From: a virus
Reading direction: 5' to 3' (one strand)
DNA: 64,000 nucleotides
IMG/VR virus record: IMGVR_UViG_3300018080_000014
Coordinates: 24,647-88,646 of that record
Shown here: piece after piece, positions 6,605 to 61,741 of the stretch
How the letters are laid out: every line of letters starts with the position of its first letter
Position numbering within the stretch: the stretch's first letter is position 1
The notes under the pieces: generated by a model
Told to the model about the DNA's origin: nothing
The model's input: the letters and a program-made list of their open reading frames with translations, nothing else
Database searches by the model: none
Position numbers and translations under genes: made by a program

Positions 6605-8151
6605 TAAAATTCATCATCTCCTCTTTTCAACACGGACTTGTACTTTATGCTCTCTTCATCTGATGATTCCAATATACTTTTTATTGCTTGCTTTACCATG
6701 TCAATTATTCCAGAGCGTATCTTGGTATTGTTATCTTCAAGCATTTCCTTGAAGTTTATCCTCGATTCTTCCAGCTTCTCTTCCACGATTGTCGTGTTAT
6801 GTTCCGTGATGCGCTCCACGATGCTCTCCCTGTCTATCTCGGATATTTCCCTTATCTCAGGCGTGGCCTCTTCCACGAACCGCTCCACGACTTCAGTTGT
6901 CCTACCAAACTGGAATGGTGTAGTTCTTGTTTCTATTGGCACTTTCTTGCCAAATAGTTCCACGGCTTCTGGTTTTGCCGTCACGGCGTCAATTATCATC
7001 TCCACTCTCTGGCCGAGCTGTGATATTAATTCCATGGATGCGACGACATCCCTTGAAAGATCTGAAAACGAGTAGGAACTCGAATCCTTGAGATCGTAAA
7101 TGGAATCCTGCACGCTGGTAAAGTATTCATCAATGTGTTCCATGGGGAATGGATCAGGTGCGTTGTCGATGATGATATTCCCGATACCACCAATGGCCAG
7201 CTTTAGTTCCGTGAACCGTGGGACAAGTAATTCTATTTCTCGCGATATTGCTGCTAATTCCTGCTGATATTGTGGCAAGTTTTCTATGCTCGTGGAAATC
7301 TCACCAAGTTCCTCGTCATATTCTGGCAATCCTTCTATGCTATCAATTATTTCTTGGAATTTATCAGCATAATCTGGAATATCTATGTCCTTTATGTTCC
7401 TCTTTATGGTTTCCAACCTGCCAGTGTAATCCTTTATTTTTATGTTGCTTATTTTCCTGCGTATAGTATCTAGCCTATCCGTGTAATCCGGTATATCTAT
7501 ATCATCTACCTTGTTGCCAAGCTCGTCAAACTCACCATCGTATACCGGAATGTCTATCGCACCTATCTGCCTTGATATTTCCTCAAGTTCTGCGTGGTAT
7601 CTTGGAATCTTACCGAACTTTCCGGCTATTTCTTCGAGTTGTTCCGTGTAATCCTTTGGTTGTGGCACGTTTGCTATGTCTTCCGATAATATCTCGAACT
7701 CGTCGGAATAATCCGGTATTTCTATCCCTTCTATCTTGCTACCAAGATTGCTTATCCTCGTTGCCACGCCACGTATCTTGTTCTTTATGTCCTGCGCACT
7801 TTCCAGTATCTTGAGCCTCACGGATGCCACGCTTGATTCAAGTGCTACCAGTATATCATCCTTTATTTCCGTGAAATCAGTTTCCTCTCCCACTACCTCG
7901 TTGATCGTGCCAAGTGTTTCCATCATTCCCTTGACATCACCAAGAACGGTTTCCATCCTCTCGTTTATCTGCGTGACGCCCGCCTCCTCCAGCCCAACCC
8001 GTATCTCGATTTCCTTCTTCCTATCGAGATCCTTGAATTGCTTTGACTTGGTAATCTTGTCTATCTGTTGTAGCGATTTTACCAGCGCATTGAGATTACC
8101 CGGATCAGGGCTATCAACTTTCAGGGACACGCTTGTTTCGTCTATGGACAT
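6604..8151 (-). CDS. Putative tape measure protein with ~17-21-aa tandem repeats
   Basis: Helical acidic 515 aa with repeated (I)P.Y...[FL]..I...I units; downstream of tube and chaperone. Confidence 0.55.
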   Translation of the reverse strand: MSIDETSVSLKVDSPDPGNLNALVKSLQQIDKITKSKQFKDLDRKKEIEIRVGLEEAGVTQINERMETVLGDVKGMMETLGTINEVVGEETDFTEIKDDILVALESSVASVRLKILESAQDIKNKIRGVATRISNLGSKIEGIEIPDYSDEFEILSEDIANVPQPKDYTEQLEEIAGKFGKIPRYHAELEEISRQIGAIDIPVYDGEFDELGNKVDDIDIPDYTDRLDTIRRKISNIKIKDYTGRLETIKRNIKDIDIPDYADKFQEIIDSIEGLPEYDEELGEISTSIENLPQYQQELAAISREIELLVPRFTELKLAIGGIGNIIIDNAPDPFPMEHIDEYFTSVQDSIYDLKDSSSYSFSDLSRDVVASMELISQLGQRVEMIIDAVTAKPEAVELFGKKVPIETRTTPFQFGRTTEVVERFVEEATPEIREISEIDRESIVERITEHNTTIVEEKLEESRINFKEMLEDNNTKIRSGIIDMVKQAIKSILESSDEESIKYKSVLKRGDDEF

Positions 8152-8830
8152 TTTGCCTTATCTCCTCCCATTTTTGCACCATGTCTACTTCCTCCTCTGA
8201 CATGGGTTTTAATGGCGTCATTCCAATACCTTTCATCAATTCTTCCATACTACTATACTCATTCTTGGTATCTTTCAAGTACTTGTGTGATTCATGGATA
8301 AACGTCAATTGTAGCTTGGTATGTTTACCAAGCTCTGCAAGTGGAACATTCAAATTCCAGTATGCCTTTGCCAGTATTTTCCCGTTCTCGGTTTCTATCT
8401 GCGATGCCATGCGTTCCTTCCCGTACACGCTCAATTTCAACACCGCGCTGGCAAGTTTTTCTATCTCGAAGTACGAGTCCGGGTGTTCCAGTATCTTTAC
8501 GCCCAAGGGGATTCCTGACCCATCCACGTGTTGCCATTCCTCTCTTTGGAAATCCTTTAATGCGTGGTAGCATATCCATAAAGATATGTCATAATACACG
8601 CTACTCGCCTCCTCCAAGGCATCCTTGGTTACACTAATTTCTGGAATGATCCTGAACCGCATGTGCTTTACTATCGATTTTGCTTCTGGAGAAAGGCGTT
8701 TACACGTGCGATTGAGCACGTCCCTTGTTTCAAGATTGGTCAGGGGACGGTACTTTACCGGGCCATATTTGGAATAAAAAAAAGAATGAAGGTCTATTCC
8801 CTTCAATATGGCATCTACTAAATCCACCAT
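8114..8830 (-). CDS. Putative tail assembly chaperone
   Basis: Start MVDLVDAILKG at 8830 overlaps the tube stop (TAATG); lies between tube and tape measure. Confidence 0.45.
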   Translation of the reverse strand: MVDLVDAILKGIDLHSFFYSKYGPVKYRPLTNLETRDVLNRTCKRLSPEAKSIVKHMRFRIIPEISVTKDALEEASSVYYDISLWICYHALKDFQREEWQHVDGSGIPLGVKILEHPDSYFEIEKLASAVLKLSVYGKERMASQIETENGKILAKAYWNLNVPLAELGKHTKLQLTFIHESHKYLKDTKNEYSSMEELMKGIGMTPLKPMSEEEVDMVQKWEEIRQNVHRRNKRVPES

Positions 8831-9390
8831 TACGTGTACGTACCTATGTTTGTCGGTTTTCCTGTCGTGGAGAAGAACCCGTTTCCTATATAGTGGAAGA
8901 CGCCACCCTGCGCATACGCGAATTTTGTCCACACGTATGGCACAGCTGCATAGACTCTTCCATCCATTCCGTATGATTTGCCATATGGTTCAACCTTGCA
9001 TCCGACAAGTATCTCGTTTCCCGGAATCCATTGCCCGCGGGAAGGGTTCTCCGTGGAATTAAGTTCCGCTACCTTGAGATCGAAGTACTCATCGGATTTG
9101 GCAAGCCATCGCAAGAATCTATAGACATCATCCAATTCGGATACAAGTATTCTCCCGTTTTTGTTTGTTGGTGCTTTTGTTCTTAACCCCAAGCTCCATT
9201 TGCTAAGACCGTGTATGTGCTCATGTGGATAGCCGATGCCATCGACGGATATTTCCTCGACAACTGCTGCGACGATTTCTGGATCTGGTGCAGCACCTGC
9301 TACCAGATCCATTGCAGATGGATATGCTATCGTCCATTTAAGCTTGGTGTTATTCGTGTAGTTTATTGGAAAATTGTTTGCTTCTGACAT
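8830..9390 (-). CDS. Tail tube protein
   Basis: 186 aa, beta-rich, directly downstream of the sheath gene. Confidence 0.65.
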   Translation of the reverse strand: MSEANNFPINYTNNTKLKWTIAYPSAMDLVAGAAPDPEIVAAVVEEISVDGIGYPHEHIHGLSKWSLGLRTKAPTNKNGRILVSELDDVYRFLRWLAKSDEYFDLKVAELNSTENPSRGQWIPGNEILVGCKVEPYGKSYGMDGRVYAAVPYVWTKFAYAQGGVFHYIGNGFFSTTGKPTNIGTYT

Positions 9391-10919
9391 TAGAAGTTCA
9401 CCTCACCAAGGTTTGATAGCTCTATTCGTTCGGTATTGGTTCCCCACCTGTATACCACCGCGATGTTTTCCCAGATACCGGATTCAGCAGCAGTCTGTAT
9501 CACGATTTCATCCGACGCGCTCTTGTTTCTCTTCGTCATGTACGGCATGATTGGTATCTCGATGCTTACCAGCCCGTCATGCCACCCATTCAACTGCGCT
9601 TGTTCCATGTATGCAGTTATGGCAGCTTGCAGCTTGTATCCACCATTCACGTCGTACCGTATGACTCCAGAAAGTATAAGCGCGAGGAGATTCGCTTCGA
9701 GAAGATGCTTTATCTGGTATCGACACCGAACGTTGTTTATCCATTTCTGGACACCAATACCAAACGTGTACCCGTAATTTAGCCACGAGTTTTCCACGAG
9801 ATGCGATGCCTTGACAATTGTCAAGATCCTCGCTTGCTTGAACGCGAGCTGCAGTGCCTCGCTCTCGTATGCCTCGATTGCGGTTGTTGGTATTGTACCC
9901 AGAACATCGTCCCTGACGCCATTCTTTCGTATCATGGCTGCTAACACGGCAGCCCCGTCGAAATCCCCCCTGTACCCATCTCCAGTTGTGGGAGTTTGCC
10001 TGAATGATGGTACCATGACGTTTCTCGTTTGTCCAAAATCACTTTGGCGGAGATCTTGCCATTTATTTGTTGCACCATAACTTGTCCCACTATCACCAGG
10101 TTTGGCATTCGCAGGCAAGCTGCAAATAGCCTGCCTATAGAACCCGCTACCAGATGACTGGTTACAGAAAGCAACTAATTCCTTGTAATCATCGACGAGA
10201 CTCGCACCACCATATATCCCTTCTGCTGGTGCAGATCCTGTCATCCTACCATGATCATACGCGAGGCTTGCGAATTGCGCATCCACTTGTCGCAGTACCT
10301 TGAACGCATCTGCAATTCCACTCGTCGTGTACGTCATGGTAACGATGTCAATTTCATCATTAACCTGCTGGTAATTACCAGCAGCATTGCGTGGATATGT
10401 CGCCTTGAAGGTGATCTTTCCAGTTTTTAACCCGGTGTCATCCTCTTCCTCGTCATATCCGCCAGCATCTTGTGTTACTGGTGCTCCGCCGTCGTATGAT
10501 ACCTTTACATTTGTTATGGTGGAAACCGGACCTATCTCCGACCTCCATTCAGACAAGCTTCCTGCTCTTATTGCTGGCTCATCCGTGTATGTTCCTCCAG
10601 AATCAGTGGTCTTGAACCTGTAAACGTATATAAATGCGGCATCCGCTCCCAGTCCAGCTTCCTCATTATAATAATCCTTTATCCACTTTGCCAGTGGTGT
10701 ATTGGAAATTGTACCGTTGTATGCGCTTTCAAATTCAGCATACGAGCTTATTCGCATTACACGCTTGCTATCAAGACCAGAACCAGACACGGGGCCAGAT
10801 AGGGAGAGAAACTTGGCGTCATTGTCATCGTCATATCCAACAACGATGGCATTTGCTCTGCCGGCACGAACCGGTCCCGGTGATGGTGGGGTTTCATTTA
10901 CTCTAACATATAGACTCAT
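9390..10919 (-). CDS. Tail sheath protein (contractile tail)
   Basis: Sheath hallmarks: N-terminal LYVRVNE, AIVVG, RISSYAEFESAY; C-terminal WINNVR and IRYDVNGG..LQAAI. Confidence 0.8.
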   Translation of the reverse strand: MSLYVRVNETPPSPGPVRAGRANAIVVGYDDDNDAKFLSLSGPVSGSGLDSKRVMRISSYAEFESAYNGTISNTPLAKWIKDYYNEEAGLGADAAFIYVYRFKTTDSGGTYTDEPAIRAGSLSEWRSEIGPVSTITNVKVSYDGGAPVTQDAGGYDEEEDDTGLKTGKITFKATYPRNAAGNYQQVNDEIDIVTMTYTTSGIADAFKVLRQVDAQFASLAYDHGRMTGSAPAEGIYGGASLVDDYKELVAFCNQSSGSGFYRQAICSLPANAKPGDSGTSYGATNKWQDLRQSDFGQTRNVMVPSFRQTPTTGDGYRGDFDGAAVLAAMIRKNGVRDDVLGTIPTTAIEAYESEALQLAFKQARILTIVKASHLVENSWLNYGYTFGIGVQKWINNVRCRYQIKHLLEANLLALILSGVIRYDVNGGYKLQAAITAYMEQAQLNGWHDGLVSIEIPIMPYMTKRNKSASDEIVIQTAAESGIWENIAVVYRWGTNTERIELSNLGEVNF

Positions 10920-19718: not shown

Positions 19719-21544
19719 GCAAGTCTTGTTGCCAGAGATACAAATGGCTTCTTTCTACACGCCCAGTACGCCAGCGCATGGGCGATTACCCTGTCATCGT
19801 GTGCCGATTGGGTCCCGTACTTTGGTTTCTTGCTTTCCGTTATGTCGTAACCGAACTTGAGCATTTCATCCCAAAAGTCCCTTACCTCTGGAAGATCATA
19901 CTGTGGTATGGCGATGTCGCCTCTTTTGGTATATCCTTCCACGAGATTGTCCACGAGATCAATCTTGGATTGCGTGTCGAAGATGAATCCCTTGTGTCTC
20001 TTCTTGGAATACAACCCGGTGCTCTTGTCCGGCTTGTTATCGAATATTTTCGTTCGCAGGCGCTCCCCGGGTGGCATCCTTACCTCGATCTCGTCTATCC
20101 TGCCGTTCGGTTTCGCTACCTGTATTACTATGCGACCAAGCCTTTTAAGTATTTGCAGATCATTCCACATATCATCCATGACAGGATCTCCTACTCCCGT
20201 GGCATCAGGGACAATCCATACTGGATTAAACAATGCGACTACTTGTAAAAACTTTGGTCGTATGTCAACGTAATCGAGATTGCTATATTGTCCACCAATG
20301 GTGAACATGTAATCCCACAACGCTTTTTCTTGTTTCCAGTCATAATGCATCACGTTAAGGGCGCTAGCATCATGCGTCTTGCCAAAATCCATGCCTATGA
20401 CGTAGTTCTTGATATTCTTTCTCGGGCTTGGCACGTTGTTGAGACCCATCATCACCGCGCGCTCCAGTAGTTCCATGCTGAACACGGCGGAACCTTCCTT
20501 GATGATTTCGCCAAGAATCTCCTGCCTTGCTTTTGGAGTATTGCCGGCAAGCCACAACTCGTACTCGATTTCTTCACGCGTCTTCCACGAGCAGGTCCAC
20601 GGATCGACTGGAACTACAGTGATAGCCCCGACACCATACATCCACCTGTTCCCGCCGCAGACGGGACAGTTTGGTAACTTCATTGGTAGAGCATGTGTGC
20701 CAAACTTGGTGATGAACTGGCGCATGAGTTGTGATTCCTGCTTGAATGTTGCTTGGCATACTTTGCCGTTCACGACGTTTGCGCATACTATCGGGCGAGT
20801 TTCCATGCCCATGGTATAGTGCCTGATGAATTCCCCACGATAACCAGCAGGGGTAGAAAGTAGAATCCAGCGTTTTCCGACACGCCTGAATGTTTTCAGC
20901 ACGACATCAGTCATGATCTCCTCATCTATCCACGCGGCTTCGTCCACCAGCCCGAGGTGCAGTGAACGGCCACGGACGCCTCTCGACGCAGGGTAAGCAG
21001 TGGCGGTGACCCGGCCGCCAGATTTTATTATTTTTGTAACATTGCTGGACTCTACCATGTAGCCAAATGGTGAGTTTTCGACAAAGATTTTTATCTTGTC
21101 CATTATTTCCTTGGCACCATCCTCGTTGATGGAGAACGTGCCAATGCGGTATCGCTTGTTCATGAAGATGAACGCGCATGCTGCTGCTATTGCCACGGCA
21201 GTGGTCTTGCCAAACTGGCGAGGCCATATCATCACGATCTCTTTCGGGCGGTCACCTTCTGGTATTACCCACGGGTACTGGTAAATATTGTACCCGAATT
21301 GTATGGAACGGATTGCCGCTTTCTGTGATTCTTCAAGGACGAGGGGCATGTCCTCGTCTTCCGGGTTTGGCAGCCAGTATTCTGCAAAAGATGCCCAGTC
21401 GAACAACGATTGTTGGAACTTTATGAATTCTGTTTCATCCTTTTCCGGGTCTATGCCCATCGTCTCGAATTGTTCCCATAAGAACTTGGTGTCACATCCA
21501 GATGATATGTCTCCTCCACCCATTCCAGCAGGCACTGCGCTCAT
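19715..21544 (-). CDS. terL: Terminase large subunit
   Basis: Walker A PRQFGKTT, Walker B VRGRSLHLGLVDEAA, motif III LSTP, nuclease GMDFG, DATGVG, HDDRVIA. Confidence 0.95.
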   Translation of the reverse strand: MSAVPAGMGGGDISSGCDTKFLWEQFETMGIDPEKDETEFIKFQQSLFDWASFAEYWLPNPEDEDMPLVLEESQKAAIRSIQFGYNIYQYPWVIPEGDRPKEIVMIWPRQFGKTTAVAIAAACAFIFMNKRYRIGTFSINEDGAKEIMDKIKIFVENSPFGYMVESSNVTKIIKSGGRVTATAYPASRGVRGRSLHLGLVDEAAWIDEEIMTDVVLKTFRRVGKRWILLSTPAGYRGEFIRHYTMGMETRPIVCANVVNGKVCQATFKQESQLMRQFITKFGTHALPMKLPNCPVCGGNRWMYGVGAITVVPVDPWTCSWKTREEIEYELWLAGNTPKARQEILGEIIKEGSAVFSMELLERAVMMGLNNVPSPRKNIKNYVIGMDFGKTHDASALNVMHYDWKQEKALWDYMFTIGGQYSNLDYVDIRPKFLQVVALFNPVWIVPDATGVGDPVMDDMWNDLQILKRLGRIVIQVAKPNGRIDEIEVRMPPGERLRTKIFDNKPDKSTGLYSKKRHKGFIFDTQSKIDLVDNLVEGYTKRGDIAIPQYDLPEVRDFWDEMLKFGYDITESKKPKYGTQSAHDDRVIAHALAYWACRKKPFVSLATRLA

Positions 21545-22092
21545 TCAACCACCTCTACTTCCTCGAGCGCAAGCCGCTTTGCCTGCATCTCCTTGAGGAA
21601 CTGTATCTTGAAATCCTCCGACACGTCCTGCCTGCTTTCCATGATCATTTGCACGACCTGCAATTTCGTGATGTGTACCTTGTCCTGCTCGGGTTCCGTC
21701 ATCTTGTGGAGGTCATTCAGCTGTTCTGACATCTGCTTGAGGTAGCCCAAGAGTTGTGGGTGGGGTTTTCCAGGCGCGCCGTGATCGTACAACTCCACTG
21801 CGACACTCTTGGTCACCATGTACAGGAGATTTTTTTCACGTATGGTGTCTATCGGTGCATGGAATGCGATGTCGAGGTCAACAGGCACGAAATTGACCAT
21901 TTTTGACGATTTTTCGTCATTTTCGGACAATTCCGCGCTGGTTGCCTCTTCCATTGCTTCTTCCCCGGAAATTTCGAGTATTTTCGACTCTTCCGCGTGT
22001 AACTGGTCGAGAATCCTTTCGGTTTCCTTTGGATGGAGTTCGACTTCATCCAAGTGTGGTATCTTGACCTTTACCCTATGCTTTGTATACAC
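21541..22092 (-). CDS. Putative terminase small subunit
   Basis: Helical 183 aa coupled immediately upstream of TerL. Confidence 0.5.
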   Translation of the reverse strand: MYTKHRVKVKIPHLDEVELHPKETERILDQLHAEESKILEISGEEAMEEATSAELSENDEKSSKMVNFVPVDLDIAFHAPIDTIREKNLLYMVTKSVAVELYDHGAPGKPHPQLLGYLKQMSEQLNDLHKMTEPEQDKVHITKLQVVQMIMESRQDVSEDFKIQFLKEMQAKRLALEEVEVVE

Positions 22093-23069: not shown

Positions 23070-23419
23070 TCACCAACGTAGCATTCGACTTCGACACTTG
23101 CCGGATCGGTATCGGCAGTGTGGACACCAACCAGCGAGTCAACCTTGCAGCGCGCTCCCCATGGCAGTTGCGACGTTATTGTTCTGCCGAGCGATGGGTT
23201 GTTTGGCATGTTGTTCAGGGACACGCGAATCGAGGAATCCGTTACCACCTCCACTTCCACAGTCACGATCTGCTTGTCGCCAAAATACGCGGAGGCTTCC
23301 GCGAGGAGATCAACGGGCGTCGAGGATACCGAGTAGCGGGCGAAATGATATGATTTGCCGTCAAGGGGGATTGAGGCGTTCTTGACGGGATGGACGAGAT
23401 TTGCCATGGGTGGATACAC
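23066..23419 (-). CDS. Hypothetical small beta-rich protein, first gene of the late operon
   Basis: TATA-like TTTAAAT at ~23431-23437 upstream; coupled to the next gene. Confidence 0.55.
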   Translation of the reverse strand: MYPPMANLVHPVKNASIPLDGKSYHFARYSVSSTPVDLLAEASAYFGDKQIVTVEVEVVTDSSIRVSLNNMPNNPSLGRTITSQLPWGARCKVDSLVGVHTADTDPASVEVECYVGE

Positions 23420-23547
23420 GCCGGCCGCCTATTTAAACTTTTCGACACTTATCCACGGCACGCGCGGGTTGGGGGGGGACTAACATGCCCTGGCGTCAAA
23501 AAGTAATTCTTTTGTCTAAATTTCGCGGAAAAAGAAAAAGAGTGAGT

Positions 23548-23847
23548 TTAGTGAAAGATCGGGAGACGCTTGTTAACACAAGTCTCAAGATCACAAAAAG
23601 AATCGTTAGAATTGTCGTCAGTGAGGAGTATGTAGTAGTACGAGTAGATCTCATCAAATCTGAAGCTCTGACAGTGATTCTTGTAGAGATCTAGGATAGA
23701 TTCGACAGAAGCTGTAGCTCCTCGGGCGTTGTTAATACGTTCGTTATCAACGCGGATTACAATGACGTCGTACTCGCTATCGTAGTGCGTTTTCACGACT
23801 TGACTATGAAAGTGCAAATTGTAGAAGTTTTTGTGTTCGGGATGCAT
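23548..23847 (-). CDS. Hypothetical protein in CCA-free island (Trp-free)
   Basis: GGTGA SD then ATG at 23847 (MHPEHKNF...). Confidence 0.6.
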   Translation of the reverse strand: MHPEHKNFYNLHFHSQVVKTHYDSEYDVIVIRVDNERINNARGATASVESILDLYKNHCQSFRFDEIYSYYYILLTDDNSNDSFCDLETCVNKRLPIFH

Positions 23848-23857
23848 ATTTTTCACC

Positions 23858-23896
23858 TTTTTTGAAAAAAAATAAAAAATGTGAGCGAAAGCTCAC
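23858..23896 (-). terminator. Hairpin plus U-tract
   Basis: GTGAGC-GAAA-GCTCAC hairpin at 23881-23896 followed on the minus strand by ATTTTTATTTTTTT. Confidence 0.55.
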
Positions 23897-24819
23897 TGAT
23901 ACTCAGCTAGCTGAGCGAGGTACTTCTCGTGATACTCAGCTTTGTGAGAAATAATGTCCTTGACGAGGTTCTCGTAGTACGAGAAGCCTCCGCGCTTCAG
24001 AGCCTTTTGATCAAGCTTCTTGATTTTCTCCTCGATCTTCTTTGAACCTAGCTCGCTCAAAATAGCGACACGAGCGGGTTTCTGAGCCTCGTCGAAGAGA
24101 AATCGTGTCGATTTCATAACGTTCAATAACGCGGCGATCCCGTTCATTTTTTTCTCTTTGAGGTAGAAATCTGCAAAGAGATAGAAGAGCTCGTTAAAAT
24201 CATCACCTCCCGCTAGGAACGGGTTGATCGAGGCTAACCCGTCGCTTGAAGCGAGCTTCTTTTTCTGTTCCTCTAATTTCGCTATGTTATCTTTGATTTT
24301 CTCGCTCGGCTTTTTCTCCGCGAGCTTCTCCTGCATCTTCTTGAGAAGATCTGTATCTTTTTTCTCAGCTACCTCAATTGTGAGCTGCATTAGCTCACTG
24401 AGGTGTTTCTCATCTAATTTCTCAGCTTTCTTTAAAGAATCTTGAAGCTTCTTGATTTTCTCGTCGATCTTGTCGATCTTCTTCGCGGTTTCCTCGTCAT
24501 GTGCAACTAGGACGAGCTTCACAGCTCTAAAGAGGAGCCTTTCGTAGTCAGTCACTATTGTGACGTACCCCTTCTTTAAAGCGGGTTCTACGTGAGCTAG
24601 CGCTAGTATTTCAAGCGTTGAAGCTACAGAATCCGCGATTTCTTTCTTGTCCTCGCTCGTGAAAAGCTTGACAAGATTCTCGTTGAACACGTTGATGTTC
24701 GATATGTCAACGTGATTCTTCTTTGAATCAAGAGCGCTCTTGAAGTCCTCAGAGCTGATCTTGTATAGATCTTCAACGTGATTGAAGATCTTTTTCGTCT
24801 TTTTGTTTTTTTTCGACAT
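23893..24819 (-). CDS. Lys/Glu-rich coiled-coil protein in CCA-free island (no Trp, no Cys)
   Basis: Probable start MSKKNKK at 24819 after GAGGT; alternative leaderless start at 24927. Confidence 0.7.
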   Translation of the reverse strand: MSKKNKKTKKIFNHVEDLYKISSEDFKSALDSKKNHVDISNINVFNENLVKLFTSEDKKEIADSVASTLEILALAHVEPALKKGYVTIVTDYERLLFRAVKLVLVAHDEETAKKIDKIDEKIKKLQDSLKKAEKLDEKHLSELMQLTIEVAEKKDTDLLKKMQEKLAEKKPSEKIKDNIAKLEEQKKKLASSDGLASINPFLAGGDDFNELFYLFADFYLKEKKMNGIAALLNVMKSTRFLFDEAQKPARVAILSELGSKKIEEKIKKLDQKALKRGGFSYYENLVKDIISHKAEYHEKYLAQLAEYQ

Positions 24820-24945
24820 TTCAGTTGTAACCTCTTGTTTTTGTGAGGTATGAGCGAGATCTCTTGTTTCCTCTAAGTACAGACGTTCCCGAATGACTCC
24901 GAGGCGATTTCTAGCGTTCCCGCTCATACGTACAAGTAGTAGAGA

Positions 24946-24968
24946 CGACTTATAAACCTTGGCTAGCG
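24946..24968 (-). promoter_or_regulatory. Archaeal TATA promoter for the island operon
   Basis: Minus strand AAGGTTTATAAG ~22 nt upstream of 24927; leader closes via GTATGAGCG/CGCTCATAC. Confidence 0.55.
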
Positions 24969-25075
24969 TTTCCGCGGTTCTAGCGAACGTACACGAGTGT
25001 TTTAGACATAGGCGTACAAGAGATTAAAGAGGAGCCTCTAAAACGTGCACCAGATGCATTTAGAGGCGCCCTGGC

Positions 25076-25150
25076 GAGGAGAATGAAGCCAGCTATGAGA
25101 TCTTCAAATACGAGATCTCAGAGGAGAATGACGCCCGTGATGAGATCTTC
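25076..25150. repeat. Imperfect 30-bp direct repeat, 45-bp period
   Basis: GAGGAGAATGA.GCC....ATGAGATCTTC at 25076 and 25121. Confidence 0.75.
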
Positions 25151-25197
25151 GTTCTAGCTCGCCCGTTTAACGAGGTCTCAGAATGACTGATCTCGGA

Positions 25198-25354
25198 CTT
25201 ATTTTTCATAAGCTGGTGACTTATGAGATATAAGCCTATATTTCATAAGTGGATCGCTTATGTCAAATAAGCTTATACTGGATAAGTAAAAATCGATTCC
25301 GGCTTTTGAGATATAAGCTTATATCGGATAAGCGATCAGCTTATACTGGATAAG
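25198..25354. repeat. Array of eight 15-bp palindromic boxes CTTAT-N5-ATAAG
   Basis: Starts at 25198, 25220, 25235, 25257, 25272, 25303, 25318, 25340 (two with one mismatch); a ninth near-copy at 26059. Confidence 0.9.
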
Positions 25355-26087
25355 CGTAACATATCGACCGGTATCGATATGAAAATCCATGCCGGAGCGC
25401 CATGGCCGGAATGTTGAGCGCCAGCATATCCTATGCCGGATCGCTTGGATCCATTCCTGTATCCAGTGCCCACGCCGGAGAGTGGGATATGCACATGCCG
25501 GAACCCACGTGCCGGTATCATTTTCCAGCATCCTCCTTCCCGTGCCGGCCCATGGCATCTCCCGTGCCAATGCACGATCCGGCAGGGTGTTACTACACCG
25601 GCATACCCCACCACCATATCCCACGCACGCCAATTCTTTTGCCGGCCAGTCAATGTGTGCGCGCCGGATCGAAAAAAATGAGTTTGGACATAAACAGCCG
25701 GCTGGCTTTCAGGAGTTTCATGCCAAACAGGCTACTCCGTTAAAACCATTGGCGGCCCCGGCCATGGCTTTAATAAAACAACACATCCAGCAAGCGCTCC
25801 AGTAAACAGCCTAAACAGCGCCAGAAACAAATGAAACGCATGTTCGGACGCTTGCTCCGGGGTCCCCACCTAACAACTTAGGTAAACAGCCGGCACGAAA
25901 CTTAGGGGATTTCCGAAGCCGTTTCCCGGGATCTCGGTATAACCCTGCCGGGTGGGGACGCGGATCTGGCCCAGCTACTAGGATCATGTTCGGAGGTCAG
26001 CACGAAATGCCATTAATAAATAATTAAATAAAGGATATTTTAAACCTTCTCCGAAGTAGTTATACTGGATAAGTCAGATCACATGCA

Positions 26088-40444: not shown

Positions 40445-40976
40445 ACTAACATGGGCAAATTGCCCGATCCGACCCCGGCACGATAGCACGCTCGTCCTCG
40501 CCCCTATTCCCGATGACCCGGATCACCTGTTATTGGTGGCGGCAGCGTGGCCGCTCTACATTTTACCGTTCGGCGATCGCATAATAGACGTTGATGAATT
40601 AGATCAGTACGAGCAGGGGATGAAATGCCCGCCTAATTTAGCAGGGTACATGCGTGAGAAATTGAGCCGTCTTCAAATCATCGACGTCGCTCGAATGTCG
40701 TGCGACATTGCACGAATGCACGCACGATATGCTGCGGATGCTGCTGATTATGCGGCTGCTAATTATGCGGCTGATTATTCGGCTGATTATGCTGCCAGTG
40801 CGGCTGATTATGCTGCTCGTGCGGCTGGTGCGGCTGTTGATGCTGCTGCTAATGCTTATCATAATAGAGTTAGTAAACACGAGTTTACTATCACTCGTGG
40901 TAGTAAACACGAGTGCATGCAGCACATCGTCGATTATGCCGTACAAATGGTAAAAGGGGAGAGGACACGTGGCTAA
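40431..40976 (+). CDS. Protein with Ala/Asp/Tyr low-complexity repeat tract
   Basis: YAADAADYAAANYAADYSADYAASAADYAA; GCGGCTGATTAT-type repeats. Confidence 0.65.
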   Translation: MTESKLTWANCPIRPRHDSTLVLAPIPDDPDHLLLVAAAWPLYILPFGDRIIDVDELDQYEQGMKCPPNLAGYMREKLSRLQIIDVARMSCDIARMHARYAADAADYAAANYAADYSADYAASAADYAARAAGAAVDAAANAYHNRVSKHEFTITRGSKHECMQHIVDYAVQMVKGERTRG

Positions 40977-43159: not shown

Positions 43160-44212
43160 TCATCTGGCAAAGTCAAGCACCCACTCCTTCTTTATTCCTC
43201 TTGCCACGTATTTTTTCGTGGCCTTGATTACTCTTTGTCCCTTGTCAACCAGACGAAGGCCAATATTATCCATTATATCTATCGTGTTATTTGCCCAGTT
43301 ATCATCCTTTGATGGTGCCACGACCACGATAATATGCCCGCCTTCTCTCAAGTACGGTGCAATCTTGGTAAAGTAGATATTGAGTTGTGCGGTGGTCTGT
43401 ATGAAATCGCTTGGCACGGGAGGATCACCGGGGGAAAAAATGGCATGCGTGAACTCGTGGATCCCGGGGTAGTTTACCACCTTGAGACTGCCGTAGGGGG
43501 GTGATGTTACCACCAAGTCGTATGGTTCCCCGAGCCTTTTTTTCTTGGTATTGATGATGGTAGGCTTCTTGCCATTGAGATATGCCGGGTGTTGCTGGTA
43601 GAATTCGACGAAATTGCGCATCGTGGTCTCTAATTTTTGTCGAAACTCGCCAATGAAATCGGTGTTGTAATGTGGATCTTTTGGTCGCTGCCAATCAATT
43701 TCTCCTATCTTGGCATACGAGCATCTTCGTAAACACTGCGCCGCACACAGGCGGAAAAAGTCCTTCATGTATATATCTCCACGAGCTCTTTGGATTGCTT
43801 TCCTGACAGCTTCGATCTGGTGCTGTATGGGGACCGGGAAGAAATACTCGGGATCGCCGTTCCTCGCAATCACCCGGCGTATGTTTTCAGGTAGGGGACC
43901 TGTTCTCGGGTGTTCTAATTGCTCGTTTATCGCCACCTGTCCAAAATGGAAGTCACGCTTGGTAAATTCGTGTGTCTTTACTCTCGCAAGCATGAAACTA
44001 GCGGGCATGATGTCCATGTGGATACCATGGCATCCCGCGAGCTTCGCTTCTACCACTGTTGTTCCCGATCCACCAAAACAGTCGAGCACTATCTCCGGAT
44101 TGTACTTGTTGATGAAATACCGCGGAATTTGTGGCACGAACCGGGCAGGATAGGAATAAATAGTATGAACGCCATAATTGGTAACGGCGTCATCAAAATC
44201 CAAGTTGTCCAT
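43160..44212 (-). CDS. N4-cytosine DNA methyltransferase (alpha-class order)
   Basis: H.IYSYPARF, VLDCFGGSGTT (motif I) before VTSPPY (motif IV). Confidence 0.85.
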   Translation of the reverse strand: MDNLDFDDAVTNYGVHTIYSYPARFVPQIPRYFINKYNPEIVLDCFGGSGTTVVEAKLAGCHGIHMDIMPASFMLARVKTHEFTKRDFHFGQVAINEQLEHPRTGPLPENIRRVIARNGDPEYFFPVPIQHQIEAVRKAIQRARGDIYMKDFFRLCAAQCLRRCSYAKIGEIDWQRPKDPHYNTDFIGEFRQKLETTMRNFVEFYQQHPAYLNGKKPTIINTKKKRLGEPYDLVVTSPPYGSLKVVNYPGIHEFTHAIFSPGDPPVPSDFIQTTAQLNIYFTKIAPYLREGGHIIVVVAPSKDDNWANNTIDIMDNIGLRLVDKGQRVIKATKKYVARGIKKEWVLDFAR

Positions 44213-59092: not shown

Positions 59093-59322
59093 TCAAGGAT
59101 AAATCCACGCACGAGCTGCTATACATTTTATCACAGAAGGGACATTGCTGGTACAACGAGACGAAATGCTACAGGATATTCAACGAGCTGGTAGATAGGA
59201 TTGATGATGATGAAAGAAGAAACCTGTCCGTGGCATTATCACACATGTACTCATGCGGGGAAGGACCAATGGAACTGATAGACATATGCAAGGAATTGAT
59301 GGAGAAGTACAAGGATGATTAG
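59089..59322 (+). CDS. Small helical hypothetical protein
   Basis: Coupled on both sides. Confidence 0.55.
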   Translation: MIKDKSTHELLYILSQKGHCWYNETKCYRIFNELVDRIDDDERRNLSVALSHMYSCGEGPMELIDICKELMEKYKDD

Positions 59323-60190
59323 AAGCCCGATAAAATGGTTTGGTGGAAAGAGCTGGCTGGTGGAGAAAATCATCAGCTACATACCACGAGAATGTGACGT
59401 GGTAATAGAAGCATTTGGTGGAGGAGCATGGCTGACGCTCAATCTTCCTCTTGGGCGGTTCAAGGTAATCATATGCAACGACATCAACGACCTGCTCATA
59501 AATTTCTGGATGGTCCTAAAGAATTCACACGCGGAACTGAAGGATGCTGCCATGCATGTACCAGATAGTGAGGTGGTATATGGGCATTTCGAGGACGTGA
59601 TAAACCATGGTGTACCGTACTTGGAAAAACTGGAAGATCCCGTGGAGATGGCACTGGCATTCTTTTACTTGAATACGCACAGTTATTCTGGCATACACAC
59701 GGGATTCCACGGGTTGAACTTTTCCACGCCTACGCAAAACCAACGAGCATACTTGTCAAAAATAGACCTATTCGAGGATATATGGTCCAGAATAAAATAC
59801 GTTACATTTAAAAACACTGACGTTATAGACCTGTTGAAGTCTGCTGATCGTGATAATGTTTTCATTTACTTGGACCCGCCATACTTCCAAGGTGGTGAAG
59901 TCTATGAATCCATCCATGGTGGCAAGCCGTGGGGCGAGGAAGATTTTTTCCGCCTGAGGGAAAGATTGTGGGAAATGGAGCATGCAAAAATACTCGTGTC
60001 CATCGATCAAGGAGAGTATTTCAAGAAGGAAGGGTGGCACATGGAGGAGATAGAGAAGACGAAAAAGCTGCGAGCAGAAGCAAAGATTGGAAGAGAAACG
60101 TTGGTGATGAATTACGAGCCTATTGGAATGGTTGAAAATGGAGAAAAAACACAGGCAGGAAGCACGGCAGCAGACCCGTGGTACTTCTAA
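59315..60190 (+). CDS. Dam-like (D12 class) N6-adenine DNA methyltransferase
   Basis: SPIKWFGGK, EAFGGG, NDIN..LINFW, YLDPPY; ends DPWYF. Confidence 0.9.
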   Translation: MIRSPIKWFGGKSWLVEKIISYIPRECDVVIEAFGGGAWLTLNLPLGRFKVIICNDINDLLINFWMVLKNSHAELKDAAMHVPDSEVVYGHFEDVINHGVPYLEKLEDPVEMALAFFYLNTHSYSGIHTGFHGLNFSTPTQNQRAYLSKIDLFEDIWSRIKYVTFKNTDVIDLLKSADRDNVFIYLDPPYFQGGEVYESIHGGKPWGEEDFFRLRERLWEMEHAKILVSIDQGEYFKKEGWHMEEIEKTKKLRAEAKIGRETLVMNYEPIGMVENGEKTQAGSTAADPWYF

Positions 60191-60464
60191 GAATTTGGTA
60201 CATGAGATAGACGAGGCAATAGACGAGTTCCGCGAGCAGCATTTCAGGCAACCGGAATTCCTGCTCTTGAATTACCGCACGGCATTTGTTGTCAAGAAGG
60301 AGATTGGCGAAAGGATGAAATACATCGTTGATGCCCGTAACAACCTTATTGGATCCACGTACAGGGGATTGGAGGTTTTTGAATGTGGAATGGACATACC
60401 GTTTATAGTTATTGGTGGTAATATTACAAAGTTACTGAGATATGCAAGAAGGGAATACATATGA
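60138..60464 (+). CDS. Stand-alone HK97 A-domain-like small protein
   Basis: EIDEAI...PEFLLLNYRTA...ERMKYIVD...YRGLEV vs MCP DMDNAV...QLFIGTKTA...ERIKYVRD. Confidence 0.55.
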   Translation: MEKKHRQEARQQTRGTSKNLVHEIDEAIDEFREQHFRQPEFLLLNYRTAFVVKKEIGERMKYIVDARNNLIGSTYRGLEVFECGMDIPFIVIGGNITKLLRYARREYI

Positions 60465-61741
60465 CAATACTACATGGCGACTGCTTCCAGTTGGTGAAAT
60501 CCGTACCCCATGAAACGTTCCACGCTATCGTCACGGACCCACCATACGGGATTGAATGGCTGAATAACGATTGGGATAAGCCAGACAAACTGTGGGATAA
60601 GCGGCAGACAGACTACCCTTCAGCACGCGGTACAGATGGTAAAGCCAACCTTAACGAATACGAAGCTGGAGAGAAGTTCTATTTTTGGTTTTCCCCTATT
60701 GCACGAGAAATGCAGCGGACACTAAAAACGGGAGGTAGTTGCTTTGTATTTTCATCCACGAGAACACTGCACCATCCGATGCGATGCTTGGAAGAGGCAG
60801 GATTTTTGATAAAGGATGTCCTGATGTGGAATTACCATACTGGATTTCCCAAGGCAATAAGTGTCCCCTTTCTTGTTGACAAGCGTGCGGGAATTGTTAG
60901 CACGAGTGACCCGAATGGACACACGGCTGTTTCCCAAGCGGCACAGGAACATGAAGGATGGGTGGTAGGTCGTGCCAAGCCAGCATGGGAACCAATTATA
61001 TGGGCGACAAAGCCATGTGATACAGCCATAGACTGCATGCTTGAAGACGGTATAGGTGGTATAAATGTTGGAGAAACGAGAATACCGGTGAACCCGGAGA
61101 TCGATGACATGAAACGCACGGTGATCCGCCAGCCACGCCATCCTGATAACGTGCTTAATTTCGATGACGCCGGTATCGGTGACAAGAAGGAGATGTTCAC
61201 CGGTGTCAGGGAGGAAGGTAGATTCCCGGCAAACGTGGTAGTGGTAAATGGTGAGATATTGGGAAAGCCGAAATTTAATATAATGTATGGCATACGGAAA
61301 GATGACCAAGTAATAGATATACCTAAACCGGACAGGAGCGAAAGGGACATGGGATTGGAAAACTGCTCCCACAACCCCATCTCGGGCGACGTGTGGGACA
61401 AGAAACTTGTATGCGCATCATGTGGAAAGAGTGTCAGGAAGCCGAAGACGACATGCGGATGTGGCAATCCTGTACTACAGTGGAAAAAATCGAAAAGAAA
61501 GGTGGTAAGGAATACCCATCCAACCGTGAAACCAATCGCGCTGTTCGAGCATCTTGTACGTCTCGTGACGAGAAGGGGGCAAGTTGTTGCCGATTTCTTT
61601 GAAGGATCTGGAACGTGTGCGATAGCATGCAAGAAAACTGGACGCGAGCACTGGGGAGCGGAACAGGATGAGGAGTACTACAACTTGGCCACGTCACGCG
61701 TGGCAAACCTATTCAATACATATGACCCGTGGGATTTTTGA
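60461..61741 (+). CDS. Beta-class amino-DNA methyltransferase with Zn-ribbon insert
   Basis: GDC, VTDPPY, GFPK, KPAWEPI, GRFPAN, HPTVKP, DFFEGSGT; ends DPWDF. Confidence 0.9.
   Translation: MTILHGDCFQLVKSVPHETFHAIVTDPPYGIEWLNNDWDKPDKLWDKRQTDYPSARGTDGKANLNEYEAGEKFYFWFSPIAREMQRTLKTGGSCFVFSSTRTLHHPMRCLEEAGFLIKDVLMWNYHTGFPKAISVPFLVDKRAGIVSTSDPNGHTAVSQAAQEHEGWVVGRAKPAWEPIIWATKPCDTAIDCMLEDGIGGINVGETRIPVNPEIDDMKRTVIRQPRHPDNVLNFDDAGIGDKKEMFTGVREEGRFPANVVVVNGEILGKPKFNIMYGIRKDDQVIDIPKPDRSERDMGLENCSHNPISGDVWDKKLVCASCGKSVRKPKTTCGCGNPVLQWKKSKRKVVRNTHPTVKPIALFEHLVRLVTRRGQVVADFFEGSGTCAIACKKTGREHWGAEQDEEYYNLATSRVANLFNTYDPWDF

Follow-up and report, generated by a model that had tools for sequence, protein, structure and literature searches.

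A window of 64,000 nt, comprising bases 24647–88646 of the 88,646-bp IMG/VR virus record IMGVR_UViG_3300018080_000014, harbours an apparent transcription unit of two genes, here referred to as the island, from which the trinucleotide CCA and its reverse complement TGG are entirely missing. Both open reading frames (ORFs), designated ORF-B and ORF-A, are located on the minus strand (Table 1), and in the direction of transcription the unit consists of a TATA-like box, a 22-nt interval, an ATG codon, ORF-B, a hairpin with a T-run, a Shine-Dalgarno-like site, ORF-A and a series of oligo-T tracts. A TATA box 22 nt before the ATG represents the geometry of archaeal leaderless transcripts. The alternative start of ORF-B at 24819 is preceded by GAGGT 11 nt upstream, and public gene calls hold both forms of the gene. 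The ORF-B product is rich in Lys, Glu and Leu, basic (pI 8.9) and contains short internal repeats; it is predicted with low confidence to be all-helical, while the low-confidence model of the ORF-A product is of mixed strand and helix.

The first CCA/TGG site to the right of the island, a TGG on the plus strand at 24960–24962, abuts the TATA box, and the nearest site on the left comes just past the oligo-T tracts; the word-free zone thus corresponds to one transcription unit. This unit is situated head-to-tail upstream of the late promoter, i.e., that of the virion/terminase operon, which includes the genes for the large terminase and the portal protein, and on its other side it is flanked by a 1.2-kb region without credible genes. 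A run of eight G residues (G8) lies just before the island, where an earlier note on this DNA had placed it. The unit is self-contained and probably native.

Table 1. Positions, in window coordinates, of the two-gene unit and of other features discussed in the text
Feature	Position	Strand	Details
Zone without CCA or TGG on both strands (island)	23494–24959	.	Defined by gap and null-model statistics
Wider compositional block	23483–25390	.	GCA/TGC outside TGCA occurs once (23786); rich in AGCT, GATC, CTAG and AGATCT
ORF-B	23893–24927	-	344 aa if leaderless from ATG 24927; 308 aa from ATG 24819
ORF-A	23548–23847	-	99 aa, acidic, pI 5.5; GGTGA 7 nt before ATG
TATA-like box TTTATAA	24950–24956	-	AAGG before it; exactly 22 nt before ATG 24927
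Hairpin GTGAGC-TTTC-GCTCAC, then T-run	23866–23896	-	Directly after the ORF-B stop
Oligo-T tracts	23503–23545 (approximate)	-	Past the ORF-A stop codon; the unit probably ends here
G8 run	23471–23478	.	Left block edge, between late promoter and island
Late-operon promoter box AAGTTTAAATA	23430–23440	-	22 nt before ATG at 23405–23407
Direct repeats GAGGAGAATGA...ATGAGATCTTC, then ACGAGRTCTCAGA	25076–25190 (approximate)	.	Upstream of the ORF-B promoter
Dyads CTTAT-N5-ATAAG, eight copies with 1 mismatch or none	25198–25354	.	Phased array
Three DNA methyltransferases	43160–44212, 59315–60190, 60461–61741		One of D12 class, two of N6/N4 beta class

The absence of CCA and TGG from this stretch had been reported in the earlier note, and counts in genome-wide windows together with four null models place it far beyond chance. 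The flanking sites at 23491 and 24960 are 1,469 nt apart, i.e., 67 times the genome mean CCA/TGG spacing of 21.9 nt, while the runner-up gap in the window measures 247 nt. For the other 31 strand-symmetric trinucleotides the largest gap spans 6.5–20 times the mean spacing of the word concerned, the value of 20 belonging to GCA/TGC and falling in the same place. The 85,592 island-free windows of 1,466 nt contain 49–94 CCA/TGG sites (mean 67.9, standard deviation 7.8) against none in the island. Genome frequencies would predict 68 sites in the island, a first-order Markov model built from its own sequence 14.5, permutation of synonymous codons within the two ORFs 16.3 (minimum 3 in 5,000 permutations) and resampling of codons with virus usage 32 (minimum 19 in 2,000 runs). 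Under both codon nulls no other of the 32 trinucleotides deviates as far as CCA (z = −5.7 and −7.4), which elsewhere in the genome is the second most over-represented trinucleotide (observed/expected 1.31, with 1.10 for GCA).

The purge is real, has a defined extent and acts on DNA and not on codons, since sites are missing from both strands, all frames, codon junctions and non-coding nucleotides. On the sense strand alone there are no CCA against 9.3 expected and no TGG against 6.9, and neither zero was obtained in any of 3,000 permutations; the 131 non-coding nt of the island are also site-free. Synonymous codon choice, codon junctions and amino acid choice have all served as routes of the purge. 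The two proteins are poor in Pro (1.4%), Gly (2.5%) and Met (1.4%) relative to the genome (4.5, 6.3 and 2.8%, respectively), none of their seven Met residues precedes G, A, V, D or E, and both lack Trp, as had been claimed from the sequence before, yet Trp is likewise absent from 11 of the 95 ORFs that are 95 aa or longer. CCT/AGG (32 vs 37.9 expected) and CCG/CGG (20 vs 35.9) remain in the island in agreement with the earlier note. The absence of CCGG, GGCC and GGCA/TGCC listed there also holds, but is of no significance, the local-null expectations being only 1.1, 0.3 and 0.8–1.5, respectively.

It is extremely unlikely that this pattern merely follows from composition, low complexity or a mutational bias tied to sequence context, such as deamination of C to T at CCA, with no selection on the word itself. 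The island is the least complex window in terms of 4-mers and 5-mers, the ORF-B repeats would fit such an origin, and TCA/TGA (1.67-fold) and CTA/TAG (2.47-fold), which are one transition away from CCA/TGG, are enriched (TCA 76 vs 58 by permutation). However, this is rejected by the Markov null as well as by permutation and resampling, and the island exhibits no G/C strand skew (C 0.211, G 0.213), unlike what is left by transcription-linked deamination. Furthermore, deamination of GCA would yield GTA, which shows no enrichment (1.04-fold), and both ORFs are intact despite a sequence rich in stop-like words.

Three other candidates were discarded. An explanation at the level of codons or tRNAs does not account for the out-of-frame, antisense and non-coding sites, which are also missing, and the window yielded no tRNA genes. 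A nuclease acting on RNA is unlikely, because the sense strand lacks both the word and its reverse complement. Finally, a bipartite, type I-like motif composed of CCA/GCA half-sites would be expected to leave a spacing-specific depletion in the main genome, and none was seen; the half-site scan returned only TGGCCA as low (18 vs 46), a word that contains GGCC.

A second, context-dependent rule applies to GCA/TGC. Twelve of the 13 occurrences in the island fall within six TGCA sites, which leaves one outside TGCA against 15.9 expected (0 of 3,000 permutations as low), while AGCA/TGCT is absent against an expectation of 10. Under the two codon nulls GCA is the third and second lowest trinucleotide (z = −3.3 and −5.1, respectively), and in both cases of an in-frame GCA codon the preceding codon ends in T. 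This rule extends beyond the island: a single non-TGCA GCA/TGC is present from 23487 to 25389, a span that takes in the upstream non-coding DNA and the array of eight dyads. CCA/TGG is thinned in the right part of this wider block, with nine sites in 24960–25389 compared to approximately 20 expected from the genome frequency. In these respects the block reverses the pattern seen elsewhere in the genome, where TGCA, CTAG, GGCC and GATC have observed/expected ratios of 0.59–0.79 and CCA is over-represented.

The promoter of ORF-B is set apart from those of the remaining operons. The standard promoter word of the virus, (cgta)AAGTTTAAAT(a), occurs in five copies (23431, 26096, 30967, 34093 and 47639), each of which is correctly oriented upstream of an operon, and the ORF-B box differs from this word. 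At the late and early operons the distance from the 8-bp box to the ATG is exactly 22 nt and includes no Shine-Dalgarno-like site, a spacing that suggests archaeal-type leaderless transcripts, while the remaining three promoters have longer leaders. The 1.2-kb control region on the right of the unit contains the direct repeats, the dyad array, a palindrome and a cluster of GCCGG words, and ends at the early promoter. The array is positioned 240–400 nt upstream of the ORF-B promoter and not at the promoter itself. A ninth dyad, GTTATACTGGATAAG at 26059–26073, lies approximately 25 nt upstream of the early promoter word and some 700 nt outside the block, and matches an array dyad in 14 of 15 positions; a half-site, CTTATCCA, is present just upstream of the late promoter (23448), and the whole genome contains only two further matches to the dyad with one mismatch. 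As judged from these sequences, the dyads and the half-site look like the operator set of a master regulator. Inside the ORFs of the unit, the core of this half-site (CTTA/TAAG) is itself depleted (1 vs 9.1 expected), and the island sequence therefore appears sculpted against DNA-reading proteins.

AGATCT is concentrated in the 1.9-kb block, where nine of the 32 copies in the genome are found between 23646 and 25143 against 0.5 expected. Three of these (25098, 25113 and 25143) are part of the direct repeats upstream of the ORF-B promoter, and AGATCT may therefore be a binding or methylation word. Nineteen of the 105 GCCGG/CCGGC words of the genome are clustered within 564 nt (25391–25954) in which there is no credible ORF; ten of the 19 take the form TGCCGG/CCGGCA, conservation of the flanks is weak, and AAACAG-type repeats follow. 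The cluster may represent an origin or a group of methylation sites.

These arrays bear on two further explanations. According to one, CCA/TGG and TGCB/VGCA would form the core of sites recognized by a protein that binds DNA, for instance at an origin, in silencing or at the GCCGG cluster, and by avoiding these words the unit would escape being bound, silenced or blocked. The avoidance of the unit's own operator half-site core, the dense dyad and GCCGG arrays that adjoin it, and the fact that TGCC, GCC and CCGG are poor or absent in the island are all consistent with this proposal. It is nevertheless distinctly unlikely, given that a core of 3 nt is too short for specific binding, that complete removal is unneeded to stop cooperative binding, that the GCCGG block shows no excess of CCA/TGG (30 vs 26.2 expected) and that no candidate protein was identified.

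According to the other, which is very unlikely, the purge would relate to single-strand recognition in replication, the island being a desert of start sites for primase, or for another enzyme that reads trinucleotides, beside an origin or in a terminal repeat. Recognition of trinucleotides is typical of primases according to excerpts of papers on T7 and on plant Twinkle primases. The virus possesses a primase-like protein (phrog_3022, E 2e-7), the island adjoins the origin-like repeat region, and the over-representation of CCA and GCA elsewhere in the genome would fit such a role. Further primases are also known to recognize trinucleotides; however, no paper on primase-site deserts turned up in the literature search, and the match between the desert and a transcription unit would be left without explanation.

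By sequence comparison, ORF-A and ORF-B are complete orphans in the databases searched. The homologue search returned only ORF-A itself for ORF-A, while ORF-B found only itself both among 8,000 scored candidates of a 5.8-billion set and in 1.84 billion representatives, and had no match in viral or metagenome contigs. Neither protein could be assigned to a Pfam, PHROGs or PADLOC family or matched in sequence to the PDB, and in NCBIfam two TraC matches for ORF-B fell far below the cut-offs (20 and 18 bits vs 127 and 120). Single-sequence AlphaFold2 models of ORF-B and ORF-A are poor (predicted local distance difference test scores of 43.7 and 40.5, respectively), and the Atlas gave no usable feature match for them, all structure rows having a template modelling score of at most 0.45. 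The pre-early anti-defence role envisaged for the two genes in the earlier note is thus not borne out, in that no recognizable takeover or anti-restriction protein was detected with Pfam, PHROGs, NCBIfam, PADLOC or PDB. The operon likewise contains nothing similar to anti-CRISPR (Acr) or anti-CRISPR-associated (Aca) proteins and no match to a regulator family of the helix-turn-helix or ribbon-helix-helix type, as would be found in an acr-aca operon. A plasmid-type partition cassette was rejected, as there is no P-loop, actin-like or tubulin-like NTPase (ParA, ParM, TubZ) and the ORF-B model is all-helical. Searches against known RNA families produced only sub-threshold chance matches.

It is doubtful that the 1.9-kb block, i.e., the two genes and the dyad array, was recently imported from a small purged replicon such as a plasmid, a satellite or another virus, in which case the purge would have arisen in another setting and would play no role in the present virus. 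The block has a k-mer signature distinct from the rest of the genome (CC/GG 0.39-fold, CTA/TAG 2.5-fold, AGCT 6-fold), ORF-B and ORF-A rank third and seventh of 95 ORFs in overall codon usage deviation, the promoter box of the cassette is unlike the standard word, and its proteins have no relatives in this virus or elsewhere in the collections searched. Furthermore, a separate 2,431-bp JGI contig holds both island genes, and this contig, together with an excess in k-mer depth of island pieces from two other runs, X2 and X3 (see below), could mean that the segment exists in several contexts.

The codon deviation is, however, limited to families linked to the avoided motifs: ORF-B and ORF-A rank third and second of 95 for NTG, NCC, GCA, CCN and GGN codons, compared to 17th and 52nd for the motif-neutral two-fold families (K, E, D, N, Q, H, Y and F). 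The share of C-ending codons is 0.63 in ORF-B and 0.60 in ORF-A, with 0.60 in the putative capsid gene. At the block borders there is no target-site duplication or terminal repeat, the longest shared word being of 8 nt, a length reached in 60 of 300 shuffles, and none of the neighbouring genes was identified as an integrase in Pfam/PHROGs searches. Outside the block, the early promoter has its operator copy and the late promoter its half-site, which suggests long co-evolution with the virus. Moreover, 374 positions of the island are one substitution away from CCA/TGG, and the probability of retaining zero sites is 0.08 at a neutral divergence of 2% and 0.002 at 5%; an import could therefore have undergone only approximately 2% or less neutral divergence since its arrival, and selection either persists or was relaxed very recently. 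An import would also merely shift the question of the cause of the purge to an unseen donor. Selection in place is therefore favoured over recent import on account of the motif-confined codon deviation, the operator copies outside the block, the lack of flanking repeats and the drift arithmetic, and we infer that this selection is continuing in the present virus.

The ORF with the most deviant codon usage in the genome is a different one, of 181 aa, which contains a repeat of the motif ADYAA (40700–40860); the runner-up CCA/TGG gap (40548–40795) corresponds to the trivial tandem repeat encoding this motif.

Another possibility, put forward in the earlier note and considered unlikely here, is that the island represents the end of the genome that is injected first, with either a physical end at the G8 run or the 1.9-kb block as a terminal repeat. 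The cassette, purged of a motif read by host defence, would then enter ahead of the remaining genome and supply pre-early proteins. In phage lambda, the DNA beside cos upstream of the terminase genes is packaged last and ejected first, and the island is similarly adjacent to the promoter of the operon for the large terminase and portal. The compositional edges at the G8 run and at 25390 are sharp, and contigs of two other runs break at the G8 run (end at 23481, restart at 23483), which could be due to length heterogeneity of the homopolymer or to a real DNA end. In X2 and X3, for which the evidence consists of contigs and not of reads, the k-mer depth is 7–7.9 over 23894–25208 compared to 2.6–4.2 for the neighbours, as would be the case for a terminal repeat (7.0 for the X2 contig 23894–25208, 7.9 for the X3 contig 24290–25208 and 4.2 for X3 at 23894–24295). 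Possible sources of this excess are a terminal repeat, a segment common to several strains, or low-coverage noise. It has also been described, in excerpts of a study on Murciavirus/Autographiviridae, that the lack of a type I motif in just the first-injected region is enough to escape restriction (PMC12455610).

Against a first-injected end, three assemblies close into a circle of approximately 88,523 bp. The 123-nt end repeat of the IMG/VR record is best read as an assembly overlap, an 88,553-bp Logan contig of the source run has a 30-nt end overlap, and the circle fits the length of a further, 88,664-bp public contig given an overlap of 141 nt, a figure derived from length arithmetic only. 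The contigs with excess depth have low coverage and break at identical points in X2 and X3, so that they may not be independent, and the excess could be due just to a segment common to co-occurring strains; neighbouring island pieces (23483–23820, and 23894–24295 in X3) reach only 3.6–4.2. An end at the G8 run would mean that the promoter is the last part to enter and that the unit is transcribed outward. Furthermore, there is no general paucity of restriction sites of the kind that the earlier note had compared with T5, as the island contains 105 four-base palindromes against 84.6 expected and the block 38 six-base palindromes against 22.6, the latter including the AGATCT copies mentioned above.

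The reading favoured here, albeit tentatively and with modest confidence, is that of an immediate-early or regulatory cassette kept invisible to a DNA enzyme that recognizes short words. Selection at the level of DNA would keep the unit free of CCA/TGG on both strands, and would keep the unit together with its upstream control DNA free of GCA/TGC except inside TGCA. What the agent is, when the unit is expressed and what its proteins do are inferred as follows. The agent would be a frequent nickase, restriction or modification enzyme resembling Ssp (CCA) or CviPII (CCD), and either the host or the virus could encode it. The unit would be exempt probably because it has to remain intact, free of modification and open to transcription at a time when this does not hold for the remaining genome. 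Its products would act before or against that enzyme and would accordingly be immediate-early or master-regulatory. With a nick-based system, nicks elsewhere would be repairable while a nicked template could not be transcribed at once, so that a local exemption would pay. The three DNA methyltransferases of the virus were counted in support of this cassette reading. In its more specific form, i.e., an enzyme-blind immediate-early module facing a host or virus system that reads CCA, and also GCA unless within TGCA, the proposal is doubtful; if true, the island would spell out the specificity of an undescribed short-word system, and the two orphan proteins would be its inhibitors or controllers.

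Several observations weigh against an enzyme-evading cassette. The virus was not found to encode an enzyme with CCA/GCA specificity, and no Ssp-like families were detected among the viral proteins scanned, which did not include every ORF. The tolerance of TGCA sits unaccounted within the proposal, protection by a TGCA methylase being a guess. Cutting or nicking elsewhere in the genome would be tolerable only with staged entry or reparable damage. The four-base and six-base palindromes enriched in the island and the block, and the presence there of TGCA, CTAG and GATC, words that are under-represented in the rest of the genome and not avoided in the block, are odd for DNA shaped against host nucleases in general. 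The overall codon usage deviation of the two genes would fit a foreign origin, the island is the lowest-complexity window for 4-mers and 5-mers (rank 0 of 436), for which the codon nulls allow, and the families and folds searched offer no functional hint for its proteins.

A DNA-acting factor that reads CCA, as proposed in the earlier note, fits a purge of both strands and all frames, and CCA is the consensus of Ssp phosphorothioation, these systems acting mainly at 5'-CCA-3' with the nickase SspE as effector, as stated in excerpts of PMC9646914 and PMC12914056. Ssp is the only defence system found with a consensus of exactly CCA, which is a 3-nt word as in the island, where CCA is the most strongly avoided of the 32 trinucleotides; to this extent the Ssp link proposed in the earlier note stands. 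In the published model, as excerpted, SspE depends on phosphorothioate marks in host DNA, nicking at CCA being left open, and the lack of CCA would thus provide no obvious escape. In addition, the Ssp systems described are bacterial, and nothing ties them to GCA/TGC.

Virus-encoded nickases with 3-nt words are exemplified by Nt.CviPII (^CCD) and Nt.CviQII (R^AG) of chloroviruses, and reference titles in the excerpted text of PMC3017599 name a 'CviPII nicking and modification system' as well as a methyltransferase cognate to Nt.CviQII. Like the agent proposed here, such nickases are encoded by a virus and their words include CCA, and the present virus has DNA methyltransferases of its own. On the other hand, avoidance of CCD would also remove CCT and CCG, both of which are present in the island, and no nickase gene was recognized in this virus. 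We know of no site-free islands in chloroviruses.

That early-entering phage DNA can avoid restriction motifs locally is already known, the first-step-transfer DNA of T5 and the early region of T7 being motif-poor leading regions. The leading region of Murciavirus/Autographiviridae (PMC12455610) is a further case and a precedent for the local exemption proposed here. The island resembles these in the local nature of the avoidance and in its small, fast-evolving and often orphan, putatively early genes next to a genome landmark. Leading regions, however, avoid sites of 4–8 nt or bipartite sites, whereas the word purged from the island is of 3 nt and its removal is total over 1.47 kb; the island further differs in its context rule (GCA only as TGCA), its enrichment in palindromes and its probably archaeal host. 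With the immediate-early anti-defence operons of archaeal viruses, which are under common regulatory sequences (PMC11065993, as excerpted), the cassette shares small orphan genes, a strong canonical promoter and nearby operator-like palindromic repeats, while it has no similarity to known Acr or Aca proteins, and word purging goes unmentioned in the excerpted text of PMC11065993. In full-text literature searches no description was found of a total two-strand purge of a trinucleotide over a whole transcription unit, nor of a context-dependent rule of the GCA/TGCA type.

If the purge reflects a DNA-reading enzyme, the specificity of that enzyme is readable from sequence alone, and the two orphans are candidate regulators or inhibitors in a lineage without cultured relatives. 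Scanning viral genomes for word-free transcription units could then reveal short-word defence or modification systems together with the genes that escape them. If the block was instead imported recently, the existence of a small, unseen replicon under extreme sequence constraint would be indicated.

The virus is an uncultured tailed virus of anoxic marine sediment, probably with an archaeal host, and its sequences derive from marine sediment metagenomes of several studies; contigs of X2 and X3 are identical to the island sequence wherever they cover it. Contigs of X2, X3 and a further run, X4, cover the window only in part, and the search of sequencing runs yielded no RNA run. In addition to the large terminase and portal protein it encodes a family B DNA polymerase, two clamp-loader-like ATPases, the primase-like protein, an anaerobic ribonucleotide reductase (NrdD) with its radical-SAM activase, the thymidylate synthase ThyX and a PD-(D/E)XK nuclease. 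An archaeal host is suggested, though not proven, by archaeal-type promoter spacing at three of the six promoters examined, by Shine-Dalgarno-like sites before 44 of 78 ORFs (17 expected), and by one clamp-loader subunit whose nearest structures, taken as a lead only, are archaeal RFC small subunits.

In collections that may leave out records of this genome or near ones, the viral DNA has no match in the phage collection, the putative capsid protein and the products of both island-flanking genes have no IMG/VR match, and NrdD has none among genome contigs. The large terminase matches 38 IMG/VR loci at 26–30% identity over part of the protein and two phage records at 33%, while the family B DNA polymerase is at most 24.5% identical to those of T4-like phages and haloarchaeal tailed viruses. 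X2 and X3 also contain a divergent relative at approximately 12× depth, which matches only short conserved patches of the terminase gene (21161–21250 and 21709–21727). Finally, the ThyX gene and an RNase H-like gene are flanked by two group-1 glycosyltransferase genes (genome coordinates 6608–10237), which may hint at sugar modification of the DNA or at glycosylation of the virion.

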